Part shown: positions 3,876-31,986 of the stretch, piece after piece | Layout: each line of letters begins with the position of its first letter | How positions within the stretch are numbered: the stretch's first letter is position 1 | Assembly: GCF_000025665.1 (NCBI RefSeq) | Contig: NC_013926.1 | Coordinates: forward strand, 210,001-242,000 | DNA length: 32,000 bases | Reading direction: 5' to 3' | From: Aciduliprofundum boonei T469 | GTDB lineage: Archaea; Thermoplasmatota; Thermoplasmata; Thermoplasmatales; Aciduliprofundaceae | Notes under the pieces: model-generated | Told to the model about the DNA's origin: nothing | Database searches by the model: none | Seen by the model: only the letters and a program-made list of their open reading frames with translations | Translations under genes and position numbers: made by a program

Positions 3876-4571
3876 ATGGAATCCTACAGGAGGATTCTTA
3901 GGGGTATAGGAATCGATAATTATGATGTTTGGTACAATACCAGGAAAGTTCTAACTGTAGGGAATATCGTTACCTTTCTGCTCTTTCCATTAATCACCAT
4001 CTACTTCCTTCACGAGATTTACACAGATAGGTATTCTCTCACAATTAACTACATATTTATGCTGCTCCCACTCATTTACTATGCCTTTGCTCTATATGTG
4101 TATTTTAAAGAGAGGAAGATTGAGGGATGGAGGATGGATACAAGGGTAAATTCACTGATATCATCCTCACCCATAGTTGTATCTATGCTAATAATTATAA
4201 TTATCTCACTCTTCCAATATGCAATTACCGAAGAATCTATTATCAGAGTGTTTTTCTTGATTCTATCGGTGTTTTTAATTGCTCCAATTTGTTATACCAT
4301 CTATTCAATGATTTTGGGATACAAGGTAGAAAAGATGGTAAAAAGAATCTACAACATTCCAGATTTGAAGAAAGAGGTTTTCAAGAGATTGAAGAACAAG
4401 TTTCCAGAGGCAAAAGAAAAGGGAAAGTATATAGTAATTGATGGAATAAAAGTTGAAGTGATAAACAGTAAATTGAGCAATTATGCTGGAACTGTGAAAA
4501 TATATGGGTTGAGAGAATCAAATGCTTCAAAGGTAAGAAAAATAATGAAAATAGTTGATGTTCTTGGGTAA
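3876..4571 (+). CDS. Hypothetical membrane protein (about 4 TM plus a lysine-rich C-terminal soluble domain)
   Basis: 231-aa ORF with hydrophobic helices and no motif I recognise. Confidence 0.5.
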   Translation: MESYRRILRGIGIDNYDVWYNTRKVLTVGNIVTFLLFPLITIYFLHEIYTDRYSLTINYIFMLLPLIYYAFALYVYFKERKIEGWRMDTRVNSLISSSPIVVSMLIIIIISLFQYAITEESIIRVFFLILSVFLIAPICYTIYSMILGYKVEKMVKRIYNIPDLKKEVFKRLKNKFPEAKEKGKYIVIDGIKVEVINSKLSNYAGTVKIYGLRESNASKVRKIMKIVDVLG

Positions 4572-6489: not shown

Positions 6490-6566
6490 AGAAAAGTGTA
6501 GGAATGCGAATATATAAAGATATCTCCACAAAAAGTATTAAAACGAATAAAGAATATAGCAAGGTA

Positions 6567-7322
6567 ATGCGACTCAGCTTCGAAGCAAAACTTGCAGTGC
6601 TACTTATAATAAGCGCCATAGCTTTTTATGTTCTTAACTACTTTCTATTTAGAGATTTGAACTTCATTGAAAGGTATCTTTTAGCTCAACTTGGATTTTT
6701 ACCCATATCCGTACTTCTCGTTACCCTCGTGCTTAATAAATTGATGGTGAGAAGAGAGAAAATGGAGAGATTGGAGAAGTTAAACATAGTGGTTGGAACC
6801 TTCTTTGCGGAGTTGGGTAAGGACCTATTGAGATACCTATCAAAATACGACAAAAAAATAGAAAATATAGCTAGAGATTTAATGAATGTAGAAAATTTTG
6901 ATGATAGTGATTTTGAGAGAGTAAAAACAAAACTTGTAAAAAGAAAATATGATATTGACATCGAGAAAATCAACTTATACGAGTTGAGAAAATTTCTTCT
7001 TAACAATAAAGAATTCGCCATAAGTCTTCTCGATAACCCTGCAATAATCGAGCATGAAGCTTTTACAGAACTACTTTGGAATGTTCTACATGTAACCGAT
7101 GAATTAAGGAGAATACCAAGCTTTGAGAATATTGATAGGGAGGATTATCTTGATATAAAGGGAGATCTTGAAAAATTATACAAGTTGCTTATATATGAGT
7201 GGATAAGGTATGTGCAATATCTTCGTATCAGGCATCATCACATATTTGTGTATGAGGCAAAAACCAATCCTTTAATCCCTCATGCATACCATGTAAAAAA
7301 GAGAAAACTCATTGAGGAGTGA
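6567..7322 (+). CDS. Hypothetical membrane-anchored protein (2 N-terminal TM plus a helical cytoplasmic domain)
   Basis: ORF on the opposite strand between the DUF1611 and epimerase genes. ATG 6567 (MRLSFEAKLAVLL...) is preferred, because ATG 6504 would sit 14 nt from the divergent start at 6489. No family recognised. Confidence 0.5.
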   Translation: MRLSFEAKLAVLLIISAIAFYVLNYFLFRDLNFIERYLLAQLGFLPISVLLVTLVLNKLMVRREKMERLEKLNIVVGTFFAELGKDLLRYLSKYDKKIENIARDLMNVENFDDSDFERVKTKLVKRKYDIDIEKINLYELRKFLLNNKEFAISLLDNPAIIEHEAFTELLWNVLHVTDELRRIPSFENIDREDYLDIKGDLEKLYKLLIYEWIRYVQYLRIRHHHIFVYEAKTNPLIPHAYHVKKRKLIEE

Positions 7323-8383: not shown

Positions 8384-9166
8384 TCATTTTTGCGTTATAA
8401 TTGTCACTTTCACATCTTCTCCATAATAGGGTGTGCGATAAACATCTAAAAATACAGGATCATAGGGCTTAGCTGCTATTCTTGCATCCTCTATATCCAC
8501 ATCACCCGTAAATAGCATAACCATATCTCCATCACTTATCCATGGTGAGTCAAGAGCATCGTTGATGGCAACCTCCAATTTATTCTTTCCAGAGCCAAAT
8601 CCTATGCCTATGCCCAATTCTCCCCTCAAGGGCACACTCAGCATGTTCTTAATGAGAATATTTCTAAAATCCAAAATTATATGCTTCATAACCTCTGGAG
8701 GAATGTTCATAGCAACTCGTATTTGAATATGTGAATAATGCTTCAAAAGCCCATCATTATCAAGTATGAAGTACATATCGTAGCTTTTTCTTATATCCTT
8801 CAAGGCCTCCCTGGCCAATTCTATTCTTCCACGATTCTCAGAAGAGAAGGGCAAGGTGAAAAGTCCTATCAGCTTGCTCTGACTTCTTTTAGACTTTCCC
8901 AAGATTCTAGCAATATTTGTACCCAGAACACCACCAAGGCCTGCAAGCACAAAAATGTATGGGCTGCTTATCCTAGAAATCCATGGAAAAGCCATATTTA
9001 TGAGCTTTTTATCCACGGTAGCATAAGCCATTACCTTTTTTTTATCCACTTTTATATCTCCATCATGCTCATTTATTAAGATAGGTCTTACAGAAAGCTG
9101 GGAAGTAACATACTCTGCAAATCTTACACCAGCGCCTCCACAGCCAAGAATGGTAAACATATCCAC
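8384..9166 (-). CDS. Short, divergent FtsZ/tubulin-superfamily paralogue with degenerate nucleotide-binding motifs
   Basis: 260 aa. FTILGCGGAGVRFAEYV resembles the archaeal FtsZ T1 region (V-G-C-G-G-A-G-x-N). FVLAGLGGVLGTNIARILG sits where the GGGTGTG signature should be. LFTLPFSSENRGR...YFILDNDGLL resembles VVTLPF-x-x-EG-x-x-R...VVIPN-D/E-KL. See findings. Confidence 0.6.
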   Translation of the reverse strand: MDMFTILGCGGAGVRFAEYVTSQLSVRPILINEHDGDIKVDKKKVMAYATVDKKLINMAFPWISRISSPYIFVLAGLGGVLGTNIARILGKSKRSQSKLIGLFTLPFSSENRGRIELAREALKDIRKSYDMYFILDNDGLLKHYSHIQIRVAMNIPPEVMKHIILDFRNILIKNMLSVPLRGELGIGIGFGSGKNKLEVAINDALDSPWISDGDMVMLFTGDVDIEDARIAAKPYDPVFLDVYRTPYYGEDVKVTIITQK

Positions 9167-12498: not shown

Positions 12499-12772
12499 AA
12501 GAGGAGAGAAAAGAGCCACGCTGAGATTGGGGGTAAAGGACTATAAGGTTGGAGAGGAAGTGGCAATAAGGTGCGGAGATAAGATAATAGGAAAGGCAGT
12601 AATAAAAAGCGTAAATTACAAAAAATTCAAAGAGCTAAGTCAAGAGGATATAATTTTAGACGGCTACAAAAAAAAGGATGAACTAAAATCTGCTTTAGAG
12701 AAATTCTACGGAAAATTCTCTGAAGACAATATATTCACGCAGATAATCTTTGAGTTAAGTGAAGTACATTAG
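12452..12772 (+). CDS. ASCH-domain protein (PUA-like fold; YqfB-like candidate N4-acetylcytidine amidohydrolase or ac4C reader)
   Basis: 106 aa. The N-terminal LNFSEDFMEKIKRGEKRATLRLG carries the ASCH G-x-K-x-x-T-x-R motif. The ORF overlaps the 3' end of tmcA by 47 nt, or by 14 nt if ATG 12485 is used. Confidence 0.7.
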   Translation: MTRYLNFSEDFMEKIKRGEKRATLRLGVKDYKVGEEVAIRCGDKIIGKAVIKSVNYKKFKELSQEDIILDGYKKKDELKSALEKFYGKFSEDNIFTQIIFELSEVH

Positions 12773-13276
12773 GGATGGCTCTTCTTCCTTTTCACCCATT
12801 ATGGATGCTCTTAGAGCTTTGAGAGATGAATTAAACGCTTTAAATATTCTCCTTCCTCTGTTAGTTTCTAACTCCATTTTCTTCATTATCTTCTCAGCAG
12901 AGCTCAATTTCCTCAAATTCATACTATGATTGAATGAGTTCATAAGAGAGAAGAAATTTCCGAGCCAGATTTGAACTTTCGTATAGTTGAGAATTATATC
13001 CTCCATAATTTTGTAATTTTTGTTTGAGGGAGGAGTAGATGAATACATATCCATTATCCACTGCATTGCCTTTGTATCCATATCGTAACCTTTCAAGTAG
13101 GTGGTATAACCCTCAACTCTCTTGCTCACAGATGAGAATCTTTTGAAAAGTTTTAATACCCTTTTATTCGGCTTTTTCTTTCCAAGTTCAAGCTCTAAAA
13201 GTGCCTTTTGGTCATCACTCAAATATGCAATATCAATAACCGTAAATCCATACTTGGCGAGAGTTTTCTCATCCAT
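12755..13276 (-). CDS. Hypothetical protein (helical, lysine-rich)
   Basis: 173-aa ORF. A TATA-like GTTTATATTG lies about 25 nt upstream of the ATG on the minus strand. No recognisable motif. Confidence 0.45.
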   Translation of the reverse strand: MDEKTLAKYGFTVIDIAYLSDDQKALLELELGKKKPNKRVLKLFKRFSSVSKRVEGYTTYLKGYDMDTKAMQWIMDMYSSTPPSNKNYKIMEDIILNYTKVQIWLGNFFSLMNSFNHSMNLRKLSSAEKIMKKMELETNRGRRIFKAFNSSLKALRASIMGEKEEEPSLMYFT

Positions 13277-16694: not shown

Positions 16695-17096
16695 ATGGAT
16701 GAAGAAACTACACAAACAGAATATTATGCACAACCACTGCCACCTGAGGCAGAGAGCATAAAGAGCTTGGTGAAAATAACAGGGATCATATCGTTGGTTT
16801 TTGGAATACTAAACCTAATCTGGGGAATTGCAGGGATTATAGTGATAGTAGGAATCGTAGGAATAATATTCGGAATAATTGATTTGCTTATTTGGAGTAA
16901 CTGCAAGAAGATAAACGGACTCATAGACCAGCGCAACTACAAGGAAGCAAAGGACAAAACTCTGATATGGATGATCATAGGATTCATATTTGGTGGCCTT
17001 ATACCAGGCATCTTACTGCTGATTGCTTACATAAAATACGATGAGGTTATACGCATTTCCCAGCAGTCAACCGTGCCACCGCCACCACCATCCTAA
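16695..17096 (+). CDS. Hypothetical small membrane protein (3 TM, glycine/isoleucine-rich helices, PPPPP C-terminus)
   Basis: 133-aa ORF with clear hydrophobic segments. No family recognised. Confidence 0.5.
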   Translation: MDEETTQTEYYAQPLPPEAESIKSLVKITGIISLVFGILNLIWGIAGIIVIVGIVGIIFGIIDLLIWSNCKKINGLIDQRNYKEAKDKTLIWMIIGFIFGGLIPGILLLIAYIKYDEVIRISQQSTVPPPPPS

Positions 17097-21182: not shown

Positions 21183-22004
21183 ATGGATTTAATACTTACT
21201 TCCCAAGATGATCTAGCTTCCCTGAACATAAGAGAAAAGCTCCTCGCTATGGATGATTGGAAGAAGATAGGCATGTTTCATAATTTCCCCGTTTATAAAA
21301 GCGAAAAATTTTATTTAGTGCATATAAAAATTCAGAAAATTTATGCGGAAAATATAGATAAACATATAAGGGAGAGGTTAGGGATAGATTTTGATAATAT
21401 AATCGTAGCTTCAAAGCACAGGAGTTCTGCAGGGATAAGAAGCTTAACAGTGCATCCAATTGGGAACTGGGGCAAGGCAGAGTACGGAGGAAAAGAAAGC
21501 ACTGTGGTAAAGACAAATCCACATCTTATGACCGAGGCTTTGCGATTGCTCAAAAAGAATAATAATTTAGATGAATACACAGTTTCATTTGAAGCAACAC
21601 ACCATGGGCCTTATCTTGAAACTCCAACATTTTTCATTGAGATAGGAAGCACTGAGGAGGAGTGGAGAGACGATAGAGCAGGCGAGGTCCTTGCAAAAAC
21701 CATTATGGAGTTGGAGGAAAAAAGATACCTTCCTGCACTGGGAATTGGAGGAGGACACTATATGCCTAGAATAACAGATGTTGCCCTTCAATACAAGATA
21801 TCATTTGGACACATGCTACCATCCTACGCAGTTGAATATGTAAACGAGAATACGCTCAGGATGGCATGTGAGAAAAGTGCTCATTGCAAGCATGCATACA
21901 TCCATCGCAAGGGACTCAAAAGCGAGCAGAAAAAGAAGATTATAAAGATACTGGAGAATTTGGGAATAGAAATAATAAGCTCAAAAGAGCTAGAAAAATT
22001 ATGA
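21183..22004 (+). CDS. dtdA: D-aminoacyl-tRNA deacylase, archaeal DtdA (DTD2) type
   Basis: 273 aa. SLTVHPIGNWG, FEATHHGP and GGGHY motifs as I recall them for the DtdA family. Confidence 0.75.
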   Translation: MDLILTSQDDLASLNIREKLLAMDDWKKIGMFHNFPVYKSEKFYLVHIKIQKIYAENIDKHIRERLGIDFDNIIVASKHRSSAGIRSLTVHPIGNWGKAEYGGKESTVVKTNPHLMTEALRLLKKNNNLDEYTVSFEATHHGPYLETPTFFIEIGSTEEEWRDDRAGEVLAKTIMELEEKRYLPALGIGGGHYMPRITDVALQYKISFGHMLPSYAVEYVNENTLRMACEKSAHCKHAYIHRKGLKSEQKKKIIKILENLGIEIISSKELEKL

Positions 22005-23405
22005 GAGCAATTTCTTGAACCACTCTTCATTCTCGTATTTCTTCAATATTTTATCCCCTCTAATGTATTTCTTTATCTCTGAATCAAACTTCACACTCAT
22101 CATCAGGAAGTTTCTGGCACCCATGTCATTACCCTTTGCAGCCATAAGTTTCCCCTTGTAGAACAATGCCTTCGCATCTTTGAAATTTCTCTTTAATATC
22201 TCATTCAATATCTTCTCTGCATAATCGTATGCCTGGTGCGATAGCATCTCCTCCAAGATGATGTTACCCTTTTCTATCTCCAAATTATCCACCATAAATT
22301 TAGCTAGTTCAAAGCTAATCTCCCTGTTAGCTAAATCCATAAATTCATTAGGATTTAAACCTTTCAAAATTTCTTTGGCTTTATCTAAATTACCATCTTT
22401 GAAAGCTTCCAGAAAAGCATCTACCTTATTTATCTCCTCTTCCTTCGTTTCTTCTTTTACCTCTTCAGCTTCATTTCCTTCCGTACTCATATCCCCTATA
22501 GCCTCATCTATTCCAAGATCCCCAAATAACTCATCTACTGCAATAGGCTTAACTTCCTCTTTCTCACCCCCACTTATTTCCTCATAAAGCATCTGCACAG
22601 TAGGATCATCTGGATAATCCTCTTTAAGTTGCTCTATAATACGATTCGCTTCTACAAGCTCATTGTTATCCATAAGAAAACGAACCTTTGTGATAAGCAA
22701 ATCTTTGTTTCCCGGGTCTATATCTAGGCCTTCTTCCAGATATTTTTCATCTTTTGTAAGAGAATAAAGTCTATTGTAAACCTTAAGAAGCTCGTTATAA
22801 TTTCCCTTTTTCTTGAGAAGTTCTGCATATTTTTTAAGAACCTCAACATTATCGGGCTCTATCTTGAGAATCTTATTTATGACATCCTCATTCTCAGGAT
22901 CAACTTCCAACGCACGAAAATACGCTTCTAAAGCGCTCTTCAACTCTCCCTCCATCCTTAAAGCATCTCCAAGTAGAATATTTGCTTCAACATTATTTGG
23001 AGCGAGCTTGACTGCCTCTTTTAAGGATGCCACAGCATATGGTATTTGAACATTTCTTTCTAAGAGGTTTCTGCCTATATCCAGCCATGCTCTAACATTG
23101 TTTCTATCCAAGCTTTTTGCTTTCTCAAGTGTTTTAATTGCATACTCATAATCTTTCAAGACGAGCATTTTTTCTCCAGCTTCTGTGAGAATCCTTGACA
23201 AGGTTTTCTTCTCCTTTGGACTCAACGCAGAAACTCTATCAAAATCCTCGCTAACCCACCTATTTATCCTCCTCAGCAAAATCTGTGCTCTATCATCCTC
23301 ACCGCTATTCATAAGAGCTTTAGCGTCCTCTAAAGTTTTAGCATAATCTCTAACAATCGTAGATTCCCTCTTCTTTCTACCACCAAACAGAGGCAAATTC
23401 ATCAC
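21999..23405 (-). CDS. TPR-repeat protein with an acidic central linker
   Basis: Repeated A-x-x-x-Y-x-x-A-L-x-x-D-P-x-N style 34-aa units (e.g. ALEAYFRALEVDPENEDV, AVASLKEAVKLAPNNVEA) and a Glu/Lys-rich insert (EEVKEETKEEE). Confidence 0.8.
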   Translation of the reverse strand: MMNLPLFGGRKKRESTIVRDYAKTLEDAKALMNSGEDDRAQILLRRINRWVSEDFDRVSALSPKEKKTLSRILTEAGEKMLVLKDYEYAIKTLEKAKSLDRNNVRAWLDIGRNLLERNVQIPYAVASLKEAVKLAPNNVEANILLGDALRMEGELKSALEAYFRALEVDPENEDVINKILKIEPDNVEVLKKYAELLKKKGNYNELLKVYNRLYSLTKDEKYLEEGLDIDPGNKDLLITKVRFLMDNNELVEANRIIEQLKEDYPDDPTVQMLYEEISGGEKEEVKPIAVDELFGDLGIDEAIGDMSTEGNEAEEVKEETKEEEINKVDAFLEAFKDGNLDKAKEILKGLNPNEFMDLANREISFELAKFMVDNLEIEKGNIILEEMLSHQAYDYAEKILNEILKRNFKDAKALFYKGKLMAAKGNDMGARNFLMMSVKFDSEIKKYIRGDKILKKYENEEWFKKLLS

Positions 23406-23503: not shown

Positions 23504-23588
23504 GCGGAGGTTGCCGAGCTAGGTCAAAGGCGCCAGATTCAGGGTCTGGTCCCGTAGGGGTTCGCCGGTTCAAATCCGGCCCTCCGCA
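23504..23588 (+). tRNA. tRNA-Leu (anticodon CAG), class II with a long variable arm, no intron, CCA not encoded
   Basis: Hand-folded. Acceptor GCGGAGG/CCTCCGC plus discriminator A; 3-bp D stem; anticodon stem CCAGA/TCTGG with loop TTCAGGG; 14-nt variable arm; T arm GCCGG-TTCAAAT-CCGGC. Confidence 0.9.
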
Positions 23589-23595
23589 CTGAACC

Positions 23596-23678: not shown

Positions 23679-24188
23679 TTAAAATTTTTCAAAATGGAGG
23701 CGATCTTTCTCTATCTTGGTATCATCATGGGAAGGCTTGGTCTTTTTGGGCACACCTACAGACATCATGCTCAGCACTCTGTATTTTTCAGGTATGCCAA
23801 GCAGTTTCTTTACATTTTCTTCAGCGTTTTCGACACCCCGCACCTGAATCCAGCATGCTCCAAGTCCCATATCCGCAGCCTCAAGCCACAGATGCTCACA
23901 GGCAATACTGCAATCTTCAATCCACCATGGCGATTTCTCCTCATCACCCACAATAACAAAAGCTGCACCTGCCTTGTATAGCATTTTTGCCCAAGGTGTG
24001 GCTTGCGATAATTTGAGAAGCGTATCCCTATCCCTAACAACGATCAGATGACACGGGCGCCAGTTCATTGCACTAGGAGCATAAAAGAATACACGAATTA
24101 AATTTTCAACCTGCCAATCCTCCAAGGGCTCTCCTGTGTAACTTCTCAAACTCCTTCTTATCCTTATTGCCTCAATAACGGGCTTCAT
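23679..24188 (-). CDS. Nitroreductase-family (FMN-dependent) oxidoreductase
   Basis: IRRSLRSY and APSAMNWRPCHLIVV motifs. Start at ATG 24188 (MKPVIEAI...) matches the usual family N-terminus. Alternatives are ATG 24245 and the track start at 24263, which is a TTG. Confidence 0.8.
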   Translation of the reverse strand: MKPVIEAIRIRRSLRSYTGEPLEDWQVENLIRVFFYAPSAMNWRPCHLIVVRDRDTLLKLSQATPWAKMLYKAGAAFVIVGDEEKSPWWIEDCSIACEHLWLEAADMGLGACWIQVRGVENAEENVKKLLGIPEKYRVLSMMSVGVPKKTKPSHDDTKIEKDRLHFEKF

Positions 24189-24310
24189 GGTGGGATAATG
24201 GGGAGAGATAGTAATTAAATTATTTGAACTACTTCCTTTATCCATTATCTTTATGTCATTCAAATTTTCGTATCTTGAATATACCTTGGAATAAACCTTT
24301 CCTGCACAAC

Positions 24311-24352
24311 ATTTTTATACCATACCTCATTTCCTTAATTAAATATAATTAA
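24311..24352 (+). promoter_or_regulatory. Putative promoter (ATTTTTATAC) plus inverted repeat TTAATT-N6-AATTAA upstream of the RHH/sat operon
   Basis: TATA-like element at 24311-24320. Perfect 6-bp inverted repeat at 24335-24340 and 24347-24352, where a transcript start would be expected. GAGGTGA SD-like sequence at 24354-24360, just before ATG 24365. Confidence 0.35.
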
Positions 24353-24364
24353 AGAGGTGAGAAA

Positions 24365-24586
24365 ATGAGTGATGAAAAAAAATATACCACGGTATCCATA
24401 CCAACTCCTCTTTTCAAGAAGATTGAGGAGCGTATTAAGGGCACTGGATTTACTAGTGTTAGCAGCTATGTTACCTATGTGCTTAGGGAGATCATAGCTG
24501 AGGATGAAGAGAGCGAAGAAGCATTCAGCAAAGAAGATGAAGAGAGAGTAAAAGAGAGACTACGAGCCCTAGGGTATCTGGATTGA
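24365..24586 (+). CDS. Ribbon-helix-helix (CopG/Arc-MetJ family) DNA-binding protein
   Basis: 73 aa. TTVSIPTPLFKKIEERIK (beta-strand plus helix 1) and SVSSYVTYVLREII (helix 2), then an acidic tail ending in LRALGYLD. Confidence 0.7.
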   Translation: MSDEKKYTTVSIPTPLFKKIEERIKGTGFTSVSSYVTYVLREIIAEDEESEEAFSKEDEERVKERLRALGYLD

Positions 24587-24596
24587 GGCGATTTTG

Positions 24597-25733
24597 ATGA
24601 TATATCCCCATGGCGGAAAGCTAGTTGAGAGATTGGATTTTAGCGAGAAGGCTAGAGAAGAGTCTATGGAACTTCCAAAATTATACATAACTCTAGACGA
24701 AGCCAGAGATCTCGGGAACATAGGACATGGTGTATTTTCACCCCTTGAAGGATACATGGTTAGAGAAGATTTTGAAAATGTTTTGGCTCAGGGGAGACTT
24801 AGCAACGACCTCCCATGGACAATTCCAATAGTTAAGGATGTCAGCGATAAGGATGTTGATATGCTATTTGAAGAAGATGAGGTTGCATTGGTTTACAAAG
24901 ATGTTCCAATAGCCATACTCAAGGTTGAAGAGATTTATCCCTACGATAAGAAAGAGTATGCAGAGAAGATATTTGGTACGATGAGCATAGAGCATCCAGG
25001 CGTTGCGAATTTAATGAAAAAAGAAGAGCATCTTGTTGGTGGGAAGATTATTTTAGTAAATGATCCACCCACAAAATTTCCAAATTACAAGTTATGGCCC
25101 AAGGAGACGAGAGTTCTTTTCAAAGAGAGAGGCTGGAAAACTGTTGTGGGATTTCAAACCAGGAATGCACCCCATGTGGGTCATGAATATGTGCAGAAAA
25201 CTGCACTGACCTTTGTGGACGGTTTGTTCATCAATCCCCTAATTGGCAAAAAGAAAAAGGGAGATTTTAAAGATGAAGTCATAATAGCCGCGTACGAGGC
25301 TCTGTTCGAGCATTACTATCCTAAAAACACAGCCACTCTAGGAATATTAGAAACAGAGATGCGCTATGCAGGACCTAAAGAGGCAATATTCCATGCCATA
25401 ATGCGCAAGAACTTTGGGTGTACGCATTTCATCGTGGGTAGAGATCATGCAGGTGTAGGCAACTTCTACGGCCCTTATGACGCTCAAGAGATATTCTACG
25501 AGTATCCCGATTTGGGCATAACCCCTCTGTTTTTCCGCTCGTTCTTCTACTGCAAGAAGTGCGGTACAGTGGTCAATGAGAAAATATGTCCCCACGGTCC
25601 TGAAGACCATATTAATTTCTCAGGAACTAAGATTCGTGAGCTGTTGCTCAAAGGTGAGAGACCTCCAGAGCTCATGATGCGCCCGGAAGTGGCAGATGCC
25701 ATATTGCAATTTGATAATCCCTTTGTGGAGTGA
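24597..25733 (+). CDS. sat: Sulfate adenylyltransferase (ATP sulfurylase), zinc-binding short form
   Basis: PUA-like N-domain, then QTRNAPHVGHEY (H-x-x-H), GRDHAG, and a C-K-K-C-G-x8-C-P-H cluster like the Zn site reported for Thermus-type ATP sulfurylases. ATG 24597; the track's first codon at 24594 is a TTG. Confidence 0.92.
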   Translation: MIYPHGGKLVERLDFSEKAREESMELPKLYITLDEARDLGNIGHGVFSPLEGYMVREDFENVLAQGRLSNDLPWTIPIVKDVSDKDVDMLFEEDEVALVYKDVPIAILKVEEIYPYDKKEYAEKIFGTMSIEHPGVANLMKKEEHLVGGKIILVNDPPTKFPNYKLWPKETRVLFKERGWKTVVGFQTRNAPHVGHEYVQKTALTFVDGLFINPLIGKKKKGDFKDEVIIAAYEALFEHYYPKNTATLGILETEMRYAGPKEAIFHAIMRKNFGCTHFIVGRDHAGVGNFYGPYDAQEIFYEYPDLGITPLFFRSFFYCKKCGTVVNEKICPHGPEDHINFSGTKIRELLLKGERPPELMMRPEVADAILQFDNPFVE

Positions 25734-25737
25734 TACA

Positions 25738-26658
25738 ATGCTTGTTCATCATTGGGATACCGACGGCATCACCTCTGCAGCCATATACATAAAACTGCAC
25801 GGAGAGGATAATTTATTTACCCCAAAAATCGGAAATTTCTACTTAGATTCTGAGGACTTTGATGTGGTTAAAAAAGCTGATAAAGTGGTCATTTTAGACA
25901 TGAACCTGCCGGACGCTGTTAAGCTCTGCAAGTATGCGGATGTGTATATCTACGACCACCATCGTGCTTCTAAGGTTGAATGTGCAAAAGAACATTACAA
26001 TCCATACCTTATGGGTATGATGTATCCTTCATGCACCACTGTACTTATGGAACGTTTCTCCTACAAGCCAGATTACCTTGTAGCACTGGGTATAATAGGA
26101 GACAAAGGGCCAGGAGCAAAGAAGATTGAAGAATGGAAAATAGTGGAGAAAGTGATGAGTAGTGAGAATCTTAGAGAAGGAGAACTTCAACTTGCTGTAG
26201 AGCTTTTAGATTCAAGCTTCAAGTTAAACAACAGGAATGAAGTAGTAGAGAATGTACACCTAGTTCTCCAAGGGATTAAGGAAGTTCTTGAAAATGATAA
26301 ACTGCACACAAATTTAGAGCATATATCCAAGGAGATTGAAATGTGGAGTGATAGAGCAGAGGATATGGGTAACTATATGTTTCTAGAGATGCGCAGTCCG
26401 TATATGATAATCTCGGCAGTTACAAGAAGAATTGCCTGGGGCAGAAAAAAGCCCGCAATAGTGGTGAATCACAAGGATGATAGGGACGAGTTCTACATAA
26501 GATTTCCAAATAATGAGCATTCTGCTCTACCTTTAATTGAATTAGCAAAGAAGAGAGGCTATAATGCTGGAGGCAAGGATGAGGTTATGGGTGCAATACT
26601 TCCTCAAGGCAAGAGCAAAGAGTTTGTAAAAGAAGTTTTGGAGGTGTTAAGATGGTAA
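25738..26658 (+). CDS. DHH/DHHA1-family phosphoesterase (NrnA-like; candidate 3'-phosphoadenosine-5'-phosphate phosphatase)
   Basis: DHH motifs I HHWDTDG, II VILDMN, III YDHH and IV GIIGDKG. The C-terminal DHHA1-like region has AGGKDEVMGA in place of the usual GGGH. ATG 25738 lies 4 nt after the sat stop with GGAG upstream; the track start at 25696 lies inside sat. Confidence 0.7.
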   Translation: MLVHHWDTDGITSAAIYIKLHGEDNLFTPKIGNFYLDSEDFDVVKKADKVVILDMNLPDAVKLCKYADVYIYDHHRASKVECAKEHYNPYLMGMMYPSCTTVLMERFSYKPDYLVALGIIGDKGPGAKKIEEWKIVEKVMSSENLREGELQLAVELLDSSFKLNNRNEVVENVHLVLQGIKEVLENDKLHTNLEHISKEIEMWSDRAEDMGNYMFLEMRSPYMIISAVTRRIAWGRKKPAIVVNHKDDRDEFYIRFPNNEHSALPLIELAKKRGYNAGGKDEVMGAILPQGKSKEFVKEVLEVLRW

Positions 26659-27212
26659 ACTACATAGTATCAGGACTGGAAAGGTCAGGCACTTCTATGA
26701 TGATGCAGATTCTGTATCTTGGAGGCATGAAAGTAGCGTTTGATACAAAAAGAAAGCCTGACGAACACAATCCCAAGGGCTATTTTGAACTAGAGGGGGG
26801 AAAGATAATAAACAGACTTATGGATGGCAGCTTTCCCATTGAGAAATACGATGATATGGTAATAAAGGTCACAGCTTACGGGTTGAAGTTCTTGCCTAAG
26901 GGAGAATACAAGGTCATCTATATGCTTCGCAACCTGGATGAGATTATGGCATCTATGAGCAAAATGATCGGTGAGAAACTGGGTGAAGAGGATAAAAGAG
27001 CTTTTGACAAACTGAACAGGTATGCTTTAAAACTTTTAGAAGAGAGAGATGATATGGATTACATAACCGTGCGCTACGACAAGGTTATAGAGAATCCACA
27101 CAGGGAGATTGAGAGAGTTAACGATTTTCTCGGCGGAATTTTGGATGTGGACTCTGCAGTTCGCGCTGTAGATCCATCCCTTTACAGAAACAGGAAGAAG
27201 GAGGTGAGATGA
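26652..27212 (+). CDS. Small PAPS-dependent sulfotransferase-like protein (186 aa)
   Basis: N-terminal strand-loop-helix IVSGLERSGTSMMMQIL fits the 5'-phosphosulfate-binding loop (x-x-R/K-S-G-T-T/S). YMLRNLDEIMAS gives R-N-x-x-D-x-x-x-S, with the same R-to-S spacing as the 3'-phosphate-binding motif of cytosolic sulfotransferases. GGAGGTG lies upstream, and the ORF overlaps the DHH stop by 7 nt. Confidence 0.65.
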   Translation: MVNYIVSGLERSGTSMMMQILYLGGMKVAFDTKRKPDEHNPKGYFELEGGKIINRLMDGSFPIEKYDDMVIKVTAYGLKFLPKGEYKVIYMLRNLDEIMASMSKMIGEKLGEEDKRAFDKLNRYALKLLEERDDMDYITVRYDKVIENPHREIERVNDFLGGILDVDSAVRAVDPSLYRNRKKEVR

Positions 27213-27751
27213 TGAAAGGAGCGACAATATGGTTTACTGGATTGCCGTGCAGCGGCAAGACCACAGTAGCCGATAAGGTTTATAACATTCTGAAAGAGAG
27301 AGGATACAAGGTTGAAAGATTGGATGGAGACATAATAAGAAAGAGTCCAATATCGAAGGATCTGGGATTCAGCAAAGAAGATAGGAGAAAGAATCTTGAA
27401 AGAGTGGCATTTATAGCTAAACTCTTATCGAGAAATGATGTAATAGTGCTTGCAACCTTCGTTTCGCCATACAATGAGATAAGAAGAGACATAAAAGAGA
27501 TAATTGGCCCTGATAGATTTCATCTAGTATGGACACGATGTCCAGTGGAGGTATGCATTGAAAGGGATGTAAAAGGCATGTACAAGAAAGCCCTTGCAGG
27601 AGAGATCCAGAACTTTACAGGCATAGACGATCCATTTGAAGAGCCTACTGATCCTGCTGCAGATTTAATACTGGATACGGATAAAGAGGATATTGATGAA
27701 AGTGTTGAAAAGGTCCTTGCCTACATGAAGAGGCGAGGTTTAATTGAATGA
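27209..27751 (+). CDS. cysC: Adenylylsulfate (APS) kinase
   Basis: P-loop WFTGLPCSGKTT, LDGDIIR, FSKEDRRKNLERVAFIAKLL, ATFVSPY. ATGA overlap with the sulfotransferase stop. Confidence 0.93.
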   Translation: MMKGATIWFTGLPCSGKTTVADKVYNILKERGYKVERLDGDIIRKSPISKDLGFSKEDRRKNLERVAFIAKLLSRNDVIVLATFVSPYNEIRRDIKEIIGPDRFHLVWTRCPVEVCIERDVKGMYKKALAGEIQNFTGIDDPFEEPTDPAADLILDTDKEDIDESVEKVLAYMKRRGLIE

Positions 27752-29084
27752 TAGAAAGACAATTTACCTTGCAACTGCATTCTTGATTCTCCTCATTTTT
27801 TATTTTTTACCCCAGCCTACTGGATTGAGTTATGAAGGAAAGATGATGCTAGGCATCTTGGTGTTTGGTGCTTTTTTATTCATAAGCGAAGCTTTGCCCT
27901 TGGGCATGTCCGGGTTGCTGGTAATGGTCATTCCTCCAATTCTTGGCATATTCTCGCCCCAAGTAGTGTTTGGATTCTTCGGCAACGAGGCCGTGTTCTT
28001 TCTGATCGGTGCGTTCATGCTCGCAGCAGGAGTGCAGAAAAGTGGATTGCATAAAAGAATTGCAACCTATATGCTCAAAGCATTTGGTAAGTCTTCAAAG
28101 CTTTATATCCTAGGCATACTGGTATTGGCAGCATCTCTATCTTTTATAATATCGGAGCATGCCGTAGTAGCACTGCTTCTGCCTATTATTGGCATATCAC
28201 TTCTCAACGTTGAGAAAGGAAGCAATATGGGCAAGGCGGGCATGATTGCATTAACCTATGGTGCCACTGCGGGGAGTGTTGCCACGCTGATGGGAGGTGC
28301 GAGAAACCCGTACACAGTTGCGTATCTAGCTGAGAATTACGGAATACATTTATCGTTTTTAAACTGGCTTATTATGGCACTTCCTGTAACGCTCATAATG
28401 ATCCCTATACTATGGACCTTAATAATAACCATTCACACTCCTGAGAAATTTATCGTACCAAATATGGAGATGCCGGGAAAGATTGATAGCAAAGAATGGA
28501 TCGTTATAGGAATATTAACTTTCACATTCATCATACTCCTCACGATCCACAGTTGGGGCATAGCCGTGGCGGTGATCATAGGTGCAGCATTGCTCTTCGT
28601 TTTTGGCATATTATCATGGAAAGATATTGAGAAGAGCATGCCCTGGGGCATAATTTTGCTTTACGGTGGTGCAATGACTCTGGGAAAAGGATTGCAGGTC
28701 ACTGGCGCTTCGGAATGGCTGGCTAGCTCTATTGTGGGAATAATAGGCACGAATCCGTATCTCATACTTCTAATCTTGTTGGTTATCACCGTGCTTATGA
28801 CAGAGCTTATGAGCCACGCGGCAGCCGTAGCACTGATGCTTCCAATCGCTACAGGCATGGCTTCTGTAACAGGCATGAGTGTGCTAGTTGTGAGCATGGC
28901 CATAGCTCTAGCGGGCGGATTTGGATACGCGTTGTTAATGGGCACCCCTGGGAACATAATGACTTACAGCACAGGGTATTTTAAGCATAAAGACATAATG
29001 AAGACTGGAGTGCTGGCAGATATGATAGGAATAGGAGTGGTATTCTTTATGGCCACAGTGCTCTGGCCTTTAATGGGGGTTTGA
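27744..29084 (+). CDS. DASS/SLC13-type anion permease (putative sodium:sulfate symporter, ArsB/NhaD superfamily)
   Basis: 446-aa polytopic protein with the internal duplication typical of DASS carriers (ISEALPLGMSGLLV ... MTELMSHAAAVALMLPI). Apparent TTG start at 27744 overlaps the cysC stop by 8 nt; the next ATG would remove the first TM helix. Confidence 0.75.
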   Translation: MNDRKTIYLATAFLILLIFYFLPQPTGLSYEGKMMLGILVFGAFLFISEALPLGMSGLLVMVIPPILGIFSPQVVFGFFGNEAVFFLIGAFMLAAGVQKSGLHKRIATYMLKAFGKSSKLYILGILVLAASLSFIISEHAVVALLLPIIGISLLNVEKGSNMGKAGMIALTYGATAGSVATLMGGARNPYTVAYLAENYGIHLSFLNWLIMALPVTLIMIPILWTLIITIHTPEKFIVPNMEMPGKIDSKEWIVIGILTFTFIILLTIHSWGIAVAVIIGAALLFVFGILSWKDIEKSMPWGIILLYGGAMTLGKGLQVTGASEWLASSIVGIIGTNPYLILLILLVITVLMTELMSHAAAVALMLPIATGMASVTGMSVLVVSMAIALAGGFGYALLMGTPGNIMTYSTGYFKHKDIMKTGVLADMIGIGVVFFMATVLWPLMGV

Positions 29085-29722
29085 TGATGAGATGTTTGAT
29101 CCCTGTGCACCAAGAGCTGTATCCTGAGAACTCGCTAAAAAGAGCTGAGAAGCTTTGCGATGAAGTTATTTTGCTCTACATAGTAGACAAGAAACTTATG
29201 GACAAGGTTCAGAGCGAGGCATCTTACATTCTCCCCAGCTTTGCACTGCAGAATGTGGAGGAATTTATACTCAATATACACAGGCAAGAGGCTGAAAAGG
29301 TGAAAAATAGCATAAGAAACATACCTGTAGAGCTGAGGTTTGTGAAGGGTGAGTACTATGAGAGTATTGAAAAGGAGATCCTGCGCCATACTCCTGACAT
29401 TCTGATGACCGATTCTTATCTTAGAGGTTTGGTAAACTTGAATGTTCCCGTATGGATAGATAGAGGAGGAAAGATAGAAGAATGCACTATGATGGTACAA
29501 TCTTTAAGGCGCATAGGAAAACTCAAGCACGCAATTGAGTTTGCAAAAAATGTGTGTAATAGACTCGGGGCCTCATTTTATATCCACTATACCCATGCTA
29601 CAGAGAGAGAAGTCCTTGAGCCCCTAGGCAGACTCGTAGAGAGCCCAAGAGGAGAATTGCTTGTATTTCTGAAAGGAGAGTTGCATAAATCTCCAGATGA
29701 TAAATCTCTGCTTCTTATCTAG
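29084..29722 (+). CDS. Hypothetical protein with a weak universal-stress-protein / adenine-nucleotide-alpha-hydrolase-like pattern
   Basis: CLIPVH...LKRAEKLCDEVILLYIVD ... PDILMTDS resembles a USP beta-alpha-beta core, but the G-x2-G-x9-G-S/T ATP motif is not visible. ATG 29084 overlaps the permease TGA by 1 nt (TGATG). Confidence 0.35.
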   Translation: MMRCLIPVHQELYPENSLKRAEKLCDEVILLYIVDKKLMDKVQSEASYILPSFALQNVEEFILNIHRQEAEKVKNSIRNIPVELRFVKGEYYESIEKEILRHTPDILMTDSYLRGLVNLNVPVWIDRGGKIEECTMMVQSLRRIGKLKHAIEFAKNVCNRLGASFYIHYTHATEREVLEPLGRLVESPRGELLVFLKGELHKSPDDKSLLLI

Positions 29723-29761
29723 AAGGCAAATGATTATATCGTGCGCATTAATCCCTGATTT

Positions 29762-31294
29762 ATGAGCAAGAGAACCTTGGTCATAGGCTGGGACGGTGCT
29801 CCCTACGACAAAATCAGTAAGTGGGTTCAAGAAGGTAAGTTGAAAAATCTGGGTAAGCTCGTGGATAAGGGTGCTTTTGGACCTTTAGAGACCACAAAGC
29901 TCACAATAAGCTCATGTGCCTGGACAACGATGGTCACCGGTAAGAACGCAGGCAAGCACGGGATCTATGATTTTTTCGGCACAAAATTCGTGGGCAATTC
30001 TTATTTTCGAGAGCCTATAAACTCAAAATGGAGACGCGCTAAAGCGCTCTGGAACTACCTTAGTAATTATGGATACAGAGTGGGCACTGTCAATATACCG
30101 ATCACCTATCCTGCAGAGCGCGTGAACGGGTTTATGGTAGGTGGAATGATGAGCCCCAGCGTAGATGCTCCCGGATTCACATATCCCGCCAATCTTCTAA
30201 AAGACTATCCCAAGCTCAAAGAGTACAGAATAGATATAGAGGGTGCCAAGCACTTAGATAGAGATAAGTTCATCTACGAGGTAAACAAAACCATCGAAGA
30301 GAGGTTCGATCTTTTCAGGTACTTGATAATAAAGAAAGATATTGACCTGTTCTTTGGAGTGTTTACATCTTCAGATAGGTTCTCTCACTATATGTGGCAT
30401 TTCTTTGATCAAAATCATCCCTACAGAAAGCACGAGAGTGAAGAAGATCTGAAAAAATACAAAAATTCTCTGCTAGAGCTTTATCAAAAGCTAGATGAGT
30501 ATTTGGGTGAGCTCATCTCCGAGTTCGGACCTGACAATGTTATGGTAGTATCTGACCATGGTTTTGCCTCTATATACAAGTACTTTGAGTTCAATAAATG
30601 GCTGTATTTGAAAGGATACTTAAAATTCAAGCCCAAGAGTGAGTGGAAAGAGTTCAAGCATGGCAAGCTCAATCCCAAGAGAACCTACATTTACGGCAAG
30701 GTAGATTGGAGCGAGACTCAAGCGTACATGATCGGCAAGAGGGGGTCAGTTTACATAAATTTAGAGGGTAGAGAACCCCACGGAGTGGTAAAGAAGGAAG
30801 AGTACGAAGATCTGGTAGAAGAATTGATCAAAGAGATAAAGAAGATAAAGGATCCAGAGACTGGTGAGTACATAGTGCAAGATGCTTTGCCCAGAGATGA
30901 GATATTCTCAGGTCCCTACTTGAACGAAGCTCCAGACATACTCACATTCTTCAAAGACAAGTACGCCTCCATAGGGTACATTGTTGATCTAAATTCTGAG
31001 GATTTGTTCATAGTTAATGACCGACCCGATTTAGAACTTGAGCTAGGTATAGAGAGATATGCGGGCATATTCGTTGCGTCTGGCTTAGATTATAGACATA
31101 CAAACGTGAATGCATGGATTGGAGATGTTACACCTACCATCTTGCACACCTACGGCATACCAAGAGATCCAGACATGGACGGAAAGGTGCTAGATATATT
31201 TGCAGAAGATTTCGTGTTCAAAGAGAGGAAGGCTGAGTTGAGTAAGAAAGAGAAGAGCATTATTGCAAAACTCAAAAAACTTGGCAAAATTTAA
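29762..31294 (+). CDS. Alkaline-phosphatase-superfamily enzyme, type I phosphodiesterase/nucleotide pyrophosphatase family
   Basis: LVIGWDGAPYD (metal Asp), TISSCAWTTMVTGKNAGKHGI (aligns by eye to the NPP nucleophile segment P-T-x-T-x-P-x-H-x-x-x-x-T-G-x-x-P-x-x-H-G, with Ser at the nucleophile position), FTSSDRFSH, VVSDHGF. Confidence 0.75.
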   Translation: MSKRTLVIGWDGAPYDKISKWVQEGKLKNLGKLVDKGAFGPLETTKLTISSCAWTTMVTGKNAGKHGIYDFFGTKFVGNSYFREPINSKWRRAKALWNYLSNYGYRVGTVNIPITYPAERVNGFMVGGMMSPSVDAPGFTYPANLLKDYPKLKEYRIDIEGAKHLDRDKFIYEVNKTIEERFDLFRYLIIKKDIDLFFGVFTSSDRFSHYMWHFFDQNHPYRKHESEEDLKKYKNSLLELYQKLDEYLGELISEFGPDNVMVVSDHGFASIYKYFEFNKWLYLKGYLKFKPKSEWKEFKHGKLNPKRTYIYGKVDWSETQAYMIGKRGSVYINLEGREPHGVVKKEEYEDLVEELIKEIKKIKDPETGEYIVQDALPRDEIFSGPYLNEAPDILTFFKDKYASIGYIVDLNSEDLFIVNDRPDLELELGIERYAGIFVASGLDYRHTNVNAWIGDVTPTILHTYGIPRDPDMDGKVLDIFAEDFVFKERKAELSKKEKSIIAKLKKLGKI

Positions 31295-31986
31295 AGATTT
31301 TTCAATATCTCTCTCGTATTTTTTATACCCACATTGAATAGCATGTCCAGAATAGAGAGATTTGGAACGAAATCTCCAAACCTTTGAGGATATACAGGAT
31401 GCTCAAATTCCTGATACACAAGCTTTATGCCGTTCTTTTCAAACACTTTAGGATCTTGATACCTCATAGCTCCCTTGCCTGAAAAATACACGGTTGCGCC
31501 CACCTTCTTGCAGAGCTCTATAATCATATCCATCTTCTTACCTTGTAGCTCTAAAGTGCTGGATCTGATAAATTTGCGATTAATATCCAGCATATTAACT
31601 ATTCTCATAATTATCTCTATGTTAAATTCTGCCAAGCTCTCCCATCGTAACTCATACACCTCTCGCAGTATAGGATAAACCTCTTCAAAGTATGGAGCTT
31701 TGGCATAGAAAGCTTTTAGGGTATCTGCATGTTTTTTATTCCATTTCTTGGTATTATCAATATGCACGTCCATTATTCTCATAGTTCCGTGCACTCTAAC
31801 AGGTACCGTGAGCCACACAGCACCTTTAGGACCTTTTACTCTGTTTCTATTTATGAATCCTCTACGACTAAACTGCACATGGTCAAGGATAATAAAAACA
31901 TCACTTTTTAAAATCTTATGAAAATACCCAATCCATGGAAGATAATTAGGCTGATGTGCCGCCACTATCTTATCCAAGTCAAACAC
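31291..31986 (-). CDS. WbqC-like family protein (usually found in polysaccharide/O-antigen-type clusters)
   Basis: The N-terminal AAHQPNYLPWIGYFHKI matches the H-Q-P-N-Y/F-L-P-W-L/I-G-Y-F signature of the WbqC family. There is no in-frame stop between ATG 31986 and the window edge, so the start is not fully certain. Confidence 0.7.
   Translation of the reverse strand: MFDLDKIVAAHQPNYLPWIGYFHKILKSDVFIILDHVQFSRRGFINRNRVKGPKGAVWLTVPVRVHGTMRIMDVHIDNTKKWNKKHADTLKAFYAKAPYFEEVYPILREVYELRWESLAEFNIEIIMRIVNMLDINRKFIRSSTLELQGKKMDMIIELCKKVGATVYFSGKGAMRYQDPKVFEKNGIKLVYQEFEHPVYPQRFGDFVPNLSILDMLFNVGIKNTREILKNL

Follow-up and report, generated by a model that had tools for sequence, protein, structure and literature searches.

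The window analysed here is a stretch of 32,000 nucleotides from Aciduliprofundum boonei T469 (NC_013926.1, positions 210,001 to 242,000 of the forward strand; all coordinates below are those of the window), and between positions 24365 and 29722 it carries a set of same-strand genes that we read as a conserved, autoregulated operon for the cycle of 3'-phosphoadenosine-5'-phosphosulfate (PAPS), dedicated to sulfation and serving an acceptor that is probably of the sugar type. To this reading we assign a probability of about 0.58. It proposes that a DASS permease with a USP-like accessory imports sulfate, which the ATP sulfurylase Sat and the adenylyl-sulfate (APS) kinase CysC would convert into PAPS. 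A small protein of 186 amino acids with a sulfotransferase fold (ST) would then sulfate an acceptor in the cytoplasm, for which the best candidate is a precursor of the sugar type, either a nucleotide sugar or a glycan carried on a lipid and bound for the cell surface. A DHH-type phosphatase would clear 3'-phosphoadenosine-5'-phosphate (pAp), the toxic and inhibitory by-product. A ribbon-helix-helix (RHH) protein is proposed to repress the operon by binding a TAATTA-N4-TAATTA palindrome overlapping the transcription start. The next gene, encoding a nucleotide pyrophosphatase (NPP)-like member of the alkaline phosphatase (AP) superfamily, would be a glycan-pathway gene, probably transcribed alone, at the junction with a cluster of WbqC, PIG-L, UDP-sugar dehydrogenase and glycosyltransferase genes.

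The protein at the centre of this proposal is ST, which is encoded at 26652-27212 on the + strand and passes the thresholds of both PF00685 (38.7 bits, cutoff 22) and PF13469 (36.0 bits, cutoff 27), with no match among the NCBIfam models. Residues E10-R11-S12-G13-T14-S15, which form the 5'-phosphosulfate-binding (5'-PSB) motif, are invariant in 28 diverse homologues (57-87% identity), and so are R93 and S101, which align with R130 and S138 of SULT1D1, the pair that binds the 3'-phosphate. Compared with the PDB, the single sequence gave noise only, and a profile of the family gave weak but consistent matches to cytosolic sulfotransferases exclusively. Furthermore, the AlphaFold 2 model (pLDDT 87.4, pTM 0.85) retrieved sulfotransferases as its first 18 Foldseek matches in the PDB, with StaL, Teg12, TPST2 and SULTs on top, TM-scores of ~0.55-0.6 and E-values down to 4e-6, while guanylate kinases ranked lower. 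ST thus shares the fold and both PAPS-binding motifs with StaL, Teg12, TPST2 and the SULT1 family, but its identity to them is 16-21%, its chain is shorter by 60-110 residues and the SULT catalytic His is absent. These findings suggest that ST is probably a PAPS-dependent sulfotransferase. The sulfotransferase call of the original prediction therefore holds at the level of profile, motifs and fold, and is contradicted by a pyrophosphatase report that is weighed below.

The ST family comprises 2550 clusters, and many homologues carry the legacy label "type I phosphodiesterase/nucleotide pyrophosphatase". Among distant relatives, P0146, P0158, P0178 and P0261 are NPP-TPR-ST and ST-TM-NPP fusions, which are probably the reason why stand-alone homologues are named nucleotide pyrophosphatases, and which also provide a link between ST and the AP family; P0124 is a fusion of ST with an HD phosphohydrolase. 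A fusion of RHH to ST was also sought among the longer homologues, and this candidate was rejected, the N-terminal extensions being unrelated.

The assignments of the other enzymes of the cycle, made by Pfam and NCBIfam profiles of the window's open reading frames (ORFs), are firm. The sat gene (+ strand, from 24594 with a TTG start or 24597 with an ATG start to 25733) encodes a sulfate adenylyltransferase that matches PF01747 (E=1.6e-95), PF14306, NF003166 (521.5 bits, cutoff 387) and TIGR00339 (391 bits, cutoff 323), and the product of cysC (27209-27751, +) matches PF01583 (E=2e-54) and TIGR00455 (200.8 bits, cutoff 138.7). The DHH/DHHA1-type protein (25738-26658, +) aligns over 294 residues (2-295 on 23-323) with PDB entry 8A8K, the PAP phosphatase (MtPAPP) of Methanothermococcus thermolithotrophicus (E=1.6e-40), and its metal-binding motifs HHWDTDG, ILDMNLP, DHH and GDKG, as well as the DHHA1 motif NAGGK, align with the MtPAPP residues named by Jespersen et al. 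2023 (PMC10322725). Both MtPAPP (PMC10322725) and the Pyrococcus yayanosii homologue (PMC8268124) are biochemically proven pAp phosphatases. By sequence, the DHH protein is a member of this specific archaeal family (MtPAPP/PyapApase), so that the pAp-hydrolysing function originally proposed for it was right, and the NrnA-type family named for it gives way to archaeal PAPP.

The conservation of the gene order was examined in a scan of one genome per species, which detected ST relatives in 245 genomes, and 80 loci were taken for comparison. RHH, Sat, DHH, ST and CysC occur together in 37 of these 80 related loci, and the ST gene stands either after the DHH gene and before cysC, or immediately downstream of cysC. 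With the window proteins as probes, gene counts among 83 loci were 83 for ST, 60 for RHH, 57 for CysC, 50 for DHH, 45 for Sat, 35 for DASS, 26 for USP, 6 for AP and 5 for WbqC. The commonest architecture is RHH-Sat-DHH-ST-CysC with or without DASS-USP; in one Thermoplasmatales clade CysC precedes ST, at some loci CysD/CysN substitutes for Sat, and bacterial loci (Dehalococcoidia, Aminicenantes, Thermodesulfobacteriota and others) usually retain the RHH-ST pair alone. Across the 37 five-gene loci, median identity to A. boonei is 78% for RHH, 69% for ST, 63% for Sat, 55% for CysC and 34% for DHH. The conserved unit is therefore RHH-sat-PAPP-ST-cysC, often followed by DASS and USP, which makes a module of seven genes, and the sat-DHH-ST-cysC order of A. 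boonei recurs in dozens of archaeal genomes.

Reductive genes are missing from this setting. As the original prediction held, profile searches detected no APS/PAPS reductase or sulfite reductase family among the ORFs of at least 100 amino acids in the 32-kb window, and unbiased ORF clustering found no PAPS/APS or sulfite reductase among the recurrent neighbour families of the 83 loci. When the same loci were probed for the ECGxH motif and, by means of CysD, for PF01507, the only matches were three full-length CysD proteins, one CysD-like fragment of 156 amino acids and one distant ORF with ECGxH. The fragment, which is CysD/PAPS_reduct-like, lies directly upstream of ST in a Dehalococcoidia locus (L056, 9378-9848) that also carries RHH, TauE and a short AP-like ORF, and it may be a decayed sulfate-activation gene.

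In A. boonei the genes are tightly packed, and the ORF listing together with direct reading placed all eight same-strand ORFs, their junctions and the convergent end of the array where they had been described. The RHH gene (24365-24586, +) is separated from sat by 7 nt if the TTG start is used or by 10 nt with the ATG start, and sat from the DHH gene by 4 nt. The DHH and ST genes overlap by 7 nt, ST and cysC by an ATGA, cysC and the DASS gene (27744-29084, +, TTG start) by 8 nt, and the DASS and USP-like genes (the latter 29081/29084-29722, +) by a TGATG that was read directly in the sequence. A gap of 39 nt then leads to the AP gene (29762-31294, +), whose 3' end overlaps that of the convergent WbqC-like gene (31291-31986, -) by 4 nt. 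Overlaps at four of the seven same-strand junctions, together with GGAGGTG-like ribosome-binding sites before five genes, make the array a typical operon. The tight array of eight genes is thus real, but it is not a uniform unit, since the conserved module has seven genes and AP is a lineage-specific addition.

The first gene of the operon appears to encode its regulator. The RHH protein (CopG-type, 73 amino acids) has no Pfam match and a weak match to the N-terminal RHH domain of NikR in NCBIfam (E=7e-4, residues 9-58), and it is named CopG/Arc/MetJ-type by database sources. Within the 101-nt region 5' of its gene, the sequence TTTTTATA (24312-24319, +) is followed by the perfect palindrome TTAATTAAATATAATTAA (TAATTA-N4-TAATTA, 24335-24352, no strand) and then by a ribosome-binding site. 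An element like TTTTTATA stands at an equal distance 5' of the RHH gene in related loci, which makes it a candidate archaeal TATA box for the operon promoter. The palindrome, located between this box and the RHH start codon, matches the window at one site, with 0.05 matches expected, and across 86 loci the exact TAATTA-N4-TAATTA pattern has 21 matches, all just upstream of the RHH gene. It precedes RHH genes in loci L004-L011, L021-L025, L031, L068, L071 and L076, and tandem copies phased at 10 bp occur in some Thermoplasmata, with such arrays in L021, L023 and L024. The position and conservation of the palindrome fit an RHH autorepressor that would occlude the transcription start, and we consider TAATTA-N4-TAATTA a probable operator, seemingly undescribed before. 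In addition, RHH adjoins ST in 60 of the 83 loci, including bacterial ones with no sat and cysC nearby, and the similar sizes of the two families (2124 clusters for RHH and 2550 for ST) are consistent with a dedicated partnership. RHH is therefore regarded as a probable autoregulator and a probable dedicated partner of ST.

Sulfate uptake is assigned to the DASS/SLC13-family anion symporter, which matches TIGR00785 (235.8 bits, cutoff 198.6) and PF00939 (E=2e-51) and follows cysC in 35 of the 83 loci; its gene context suggests that sulfate is the substrate. In six loci (for example L023, 3581-4375) the DASS slot after cysC is filled by a TauE/TSUP (DUF81) permease, and a permease of this type occupies the same slot in the P. 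yayanosii cluster (PMC8268124). This looks like a non-orthologous replacement of DASS and USP as the presumed sulfate importer. The diverged USP-like ORF has no direct Pfam match, and it is homologous (E=2e-14) to a syntenic protein of locus L073 that itself matches PF00582 at E=1.6e-18. Genes of this kind were found solely downstream of DASS, in 26 loci, and the USP-like protein is probably an accessory of the permease.

The AP gene encodes a cytosolic protein of 510 amino acids that matches PF01663 with 122 bits. Its AlphaFold 2 model (pLDDT 93) has NPP/ENPP structures as top Foldseek matches (E ~2e-15), and the metal ligands D11, D205, H209, D265 and H266 are invariant, with Ser or Thr at the nucleophile position 50 in 31 of 31 sequences; by sequence and model it belongs to the NPP-like branch of the AP superfamily. 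Its membership of the conserved module was considered and rejected: it occurs in only 6 of the 83 loci, follows the module in close Aciduliprofundum relatives only, and is paired with WbqC in glycan clusters elsewhere. A TATA-like element, ATGATTATATC (29731-29741, +), lies ~25 nt 5' of the AP start codon and is conserved in L001, L004 and L007, and the AP ATG, unlike the starts of the other genes, has no ribosome-binding site. The element is a candidate internal promoter that would give a leaderless mRNA, and the gene probably has a transcript of its own. With AP and the WbqC-like protein (PF08889, E=4.6e-84), the families named in the original prediction for Sat, CysC, DASS, USP-like, AP and WbqC are all upheld by profiles and homology.

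Homologues of AP (32-50% identity) all lie within clusters for glycans or polysaccharides. WbqC directly follows the AP homologue of Halobellus and that of a metagenomic contig of haloarchaeal type (L084, L086), with other sulfotransferases and sulfatases nearby; further homologues stand beside GT2/GT4, DegT, flippase and Alg13/14-like genes, and one beside cysD-cysN. Given this setting, the AP gene appears to belong with the WbqC glycan cluster, onto which the sulfate module has docked. Beyond the window, WbqC is followed by genes for a PIG-L deacetylase, a UDP-sugar dehydrogenase, GT4 glycosyltransferases and a member of the GlcNAc-1-P-transferase family (L001). In a Syntrophorhabdaceae polysaccharide cluster (L088, 10417-13617), an AP homologue with the C-terminal tail described below has cysN-like and cysD-like genes in its vicinity, as well as another gene matching PF01663, and no PF00685 sulfotransferase is in view. 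This hints that the AP family may have a part of its own in sulfate chemistry.

The proximity to glycan genes is not confined to A. boonei. In 29 of 77 loci, the module has a gene of the glycan or UDP-sugar type (GlmS, GlmU-like, UDP-sugar dehydrogenase, DegT, GT2/GT4 or flippase) no more than three genes from its edge, a count of phylogenetically related loci made with no formal background control. The lineages concerned are DHVE2, other Thermoplasmata, Archaeoglobaceae, Thermococci, Dehalococcoidia, Aminicenantes and an exopolysaccharide (EPS) cluster of Thermodesulfobacteriota. In one example, RHH-ST-AP is located inside an EPS export cluster of the Wza/Wzc/WbaP type, an Aminicenantes locus reads ST-RHH-epimerase-UDP-sugar dehydrogenase, and in Archaeoglobaceae the ST family adjoins GlmS with no sat nearby. 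The recurrence of glycan neighbours across unrelated lineages and the NPP-TPR-ST fusions make a carbohydrate the best guess for the acceptor, and these comparisons strengthen what had been a speculative hint drawn from WbqC.

Several points weigh against a sulfation operon with a sugar-type acceptor. To our knowledge, no member of the ST family has been assayed as a sulfotransferase, and the column of the SULT catalytic His holds an invariant Ala75. The catalytic base is a His in SULT/StaL and a Glu in TPST and heparan-sulfate sulfotransferases; in ST, the invariant E46 and E10 are candidates for it. The stronger conservation of ST than of Sat (69% versus 63%) is unusual for enzymes acting on variable glycans, although together with the small size of ST it would suit a universal precursor, for example a nucleotide sugar, and the 29 glycan-flanked loci carry the limit on background and relatedness given above. 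Moreover, TON_1705 of Thermococcus onnurineus, which occupies the same operon slot, was reported as an inorganic pyrophosphatase by Lee et al. 2009, as relayed in later sources (PMC9653972, PMC4463584). Finally, in Thermococcales that carry this cluster, candidates for PAPS reductase and sulfite reductase are annotated at other places of the genome (PMC4463584, PMC6981617), with PAPS-reductase candidates in T. onnurineus and Palaeococcus; the Thermococcales candidates were not detected in proteomes.

The last two points speak for a rival explanation, in which the module activates sulfate for assimilation. PAPS would pass to an unlinked PAPS reductase and sulfite reductase, the 186-residue protein would draw the ATP sulfurylase reaction forward by hydrolysing pyrophosphate, and the DHH enzyme would clear the pAp left by the reductase. 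The cluster has indeed been labelled "assimilatory sulfate reduction" (PMC8268124), and the assimilation pathway of M. thermolithotrophicus employs homologues of Sat, CysC and the DHH protein (PMC10322725). We nevertheless regard assimilation as unlikely here. The protein in question passes sulfotransferase Pfam thresholds and has both PAPS-binding motifs and a sulfotransferase fold, no reductase is linked to the module at the 83 loci, and ST genes also occur with no sat nearby, as RHH-ST in bacterial polysaccharide clusters and beside GlmS in Archaeoglobaceae, where a Sat-coupled pyrophosphatase would have no role. A. boonei is, furthermore, a peptide-fermenting sulfur reducer of sulfidic vents, which makes a need for sulfate assimilation doubtful. 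Operon position and the shared legacy label suggest that TON_1705 is probably an ST orthologue, but the kcat of 2.1 s-1 quoted for it, at a Km of 18.8 uM, is ~1000-fold below that of true pyrophosphatases in the same table (PMC9653972), and we regard the activity as more likely promiscuous or an artefact. In addition, Jin et al. 2021 found no enzymes reducing sulfite to sulfide in P. yayanosii and left the function of the cluster open (PMC8268124).

The glycan link itself would fall if the module sulfated a small soluble metabolite (an osmolyte, piezolyte or cofactor) or made PAPS/pAp signals, with no glycan being modified. ST is very small and soluble, its median identity of 69% fits an invariant small acceptor, and sulfotrehalose is a known archaeal sulfated solute. 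In P. yayanosii, Sat, CysC and the protein in the ST position are up under high pressure, and pAp/PAPS signalling was raised by the authors (PMC8268124). However, sugar-nucleotide and polysaccharide genes recur beside the module in unrelated lineages, including RHH-ST-AP in a complete EPS cluster, and the ST family is fused to an NPP domain of the glycan-cluster type. A nucleotide sugar is also a small invariant acceptor, so this explanation partly overlaps with the sugar-directed sulfation that we prefer; taken as a separate explanation it appears improbable.

A further possibility concerns a C-terminal tail shared by two protein families. The tail of RHH, FSKEDEERVKERLRALGYLD (window 24527-24586), is invariant in 59 RHH homologues, including bacterial ones with a diverged DNA-binding core, and a module of ~20 residues, FSxEDEExVKxRLRxLGY[LM][DE], is common to the RHH C-terminus and most AP family members (homologues P0406-P0507), for example FSAEEEEEIKKRLRALGYLAG and FTDEDKEEVVKKLRALGYMD. 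The AP homologues that bear it come from haloarchaea, Methanomassiliicoccales, Chloroflexi and Syntrophorhabdaceae. The module has no Pfam or NCBIfam model and shows only a sub-threshold resemblance to PG_binding_2. Its interpretation as an HbYX proteasome-docking motif was rejected because the Tyr is not penultimate in RHH.

ST might sulfate this tail (FSxEDEExVKxRLRxLGYLD) or dock to it on RHH and on most NPP-like AP enzymes, which would couple PAPS supply to repression of the operon and recruit ST to a glycan enzyme. Besides the invariance of the tail and its spread across AP homologues of several archaeal and bacterial groups, this idea is favoured by RHH and ST being the two most conserved proteins of the operon, by the known AP-TPR-ST fusions, and by the presence of TPST2 and of the phenol-sulfating StaL and Teg12 among the best fold matches of ST. 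In those fusions, however, the motif stays internal, after the AP domain, and may be a mere structural helix of that domain; the tail of A. boonei AP (31241-31291) is degenerate, ending in LGKI without the Tyr; and CysC proteins end in a similar LxxLGYI, so that the motif may partly be a common helix cap. The conserved putative operator, moreover, suggests that RHH is an ordinary DNA binder. Because the motif is internal in the fusions, degenerate in A. boonei AP and resembles the end of CysC, a role of the tail as a tag for ST seems very remote. That the 186-residue protein might be the founder of a widespread, minimal cytosolic sulfotransferase family with tag-directed sulfation via a portable C-terminal tag in archaea and bacteria seems highly improbable.

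Upstream of the operon, a nitroreductase-family gene (23679-24263, -) diverges from the promoter, and a tRNA-Leu gene with anticodon CAG (23504-23589, +) separates it from a TPR-repeat gene of 468 amino acids (21999-23405, -). Elsewhere in the window, four ORFs of 133-272 amino acids have no Pfam match at E<=1e-4 (3876-4571, +; 6504-7322, +; 12755-13276, -; 16695-17096, +). An ORF of 260 amino acids (8384-9166, -) partially matches the Tubulin/FtsZ GTPase domain (E=3.5e-9, profile positions 111-188) and may be a truncated or divergent FtsZ/CetZ-like gene.

Dedicated sulfation loci are familiar from bacteria, where rhizobial nodPQ-nodH, Xanthomonas raxPQ-raxST and mycobacterial cysDNC with stf genes likewise combine dedicated PAPS synthesis with a PAPS-dependent sulfotransferase whose product is secreted or displayed on the surface. 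Those loci use CysDN for activation, a CysQ-type pAp phosphatase encoded elsewhere and larger sulfotransferases with known acceptors, whereas A. boonei has Sat, a DHH-type phosphatase, a minimal sulfotransferase-fold protein of 186 residues and a dedicated RHH partner. Literature searches for archaeal sulfotransferases gave nothing relevant. Agl7 of Haloferax volcanii is a precedent, in which a sugar bound to dolichol phosphate is sulfated in the cytoplasm of an archaeon (PMC3892788), and it resembles the system proposed here in acting on a glycan precursor in the cytoplasm and in being encoded in a glycan cluster. The likeness is drawn at the level of function. Unlike in A. boonei, no adjacent sat/cysC operon has been described for it.

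The closest relatives of the locus are in archaea. The Thermococcales cluster (T. onnurineus TON_1704-1707, Lee et al. 2009; P. yayanosii PYCH_17520-17570, PMC8268124) has the same order of copG/RHH, ATP sulfurylase, DHH pAp phosphatase, small ORF, APS kinase and anion permease, but its pathway has been called assimilatory and its small ORF taken as a pyrophosphatase or phosphodiesterase. Its permease is of the TauE/DUF81 type, in contrast to the DASS and USP of A. boonei, where the module abuts a glycan cluster. The M. thermolithotrophicus locus (PMC10322725) shares with A. boonei homologous forms of ATP sulfurylase and APS kinase and the unusual PAP phosphatase of the DHH type; it carries a PAPS reductase and no sulfotransferase, and feeds Fsr, while A. 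boonei has a sulfotransferase-fold gene and no linked reductase. The cluster as such is not new: under the name "sulfate assimilation cluster" it was shown by Jin et al. 2021 for a number of archaea, among them A. boonei with aboo_0230-0235 (PMC8268124). Similarly, Jespersen et al. 2023 raised the possibility of a "non-canonical sulfotransferase" in archaea that retain ATP sulfurylase, APS kinase and PAPP, and the A. boonei locus fits their "route 1c", which was hypothesised for other archaea (PMC10322725). The original prediction of a candidate archaeal sulfation system was therefore right in outline, but it does not amount to a new kind of system. What is added here is the fold support for ST, the seven-gene module, the pairing of RHH with its putative operator, the reassignment of AP to the glycan cluster and the cross-lineage link to glycans.

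To conclude, several archaea that do not assimilate sulfate (Thermococcales, DHVE2 and some methanogens) have retained the genes that make PAPS and remove pAp, and the use of this PAPS was left open by earlier work (PMC8268124, PMC10322725). The A. boonei locus offers a candidate PAPS consumer, in the form of a small and highly conserved protein with a sulfotransferase fold, a candidate class of acceptor, and a candidate pair of regulator and operator. The probable misannotation of this family as "nucleotide pyrophosphatase" or pyrophosphatase touches ~2500 protein clusters. If the acceptor is indeed a precursor of a surface glycan, the locus would reveal the enzymes behind glycan sulfation in thermophilic archaea, a subject that is almost unexplored.

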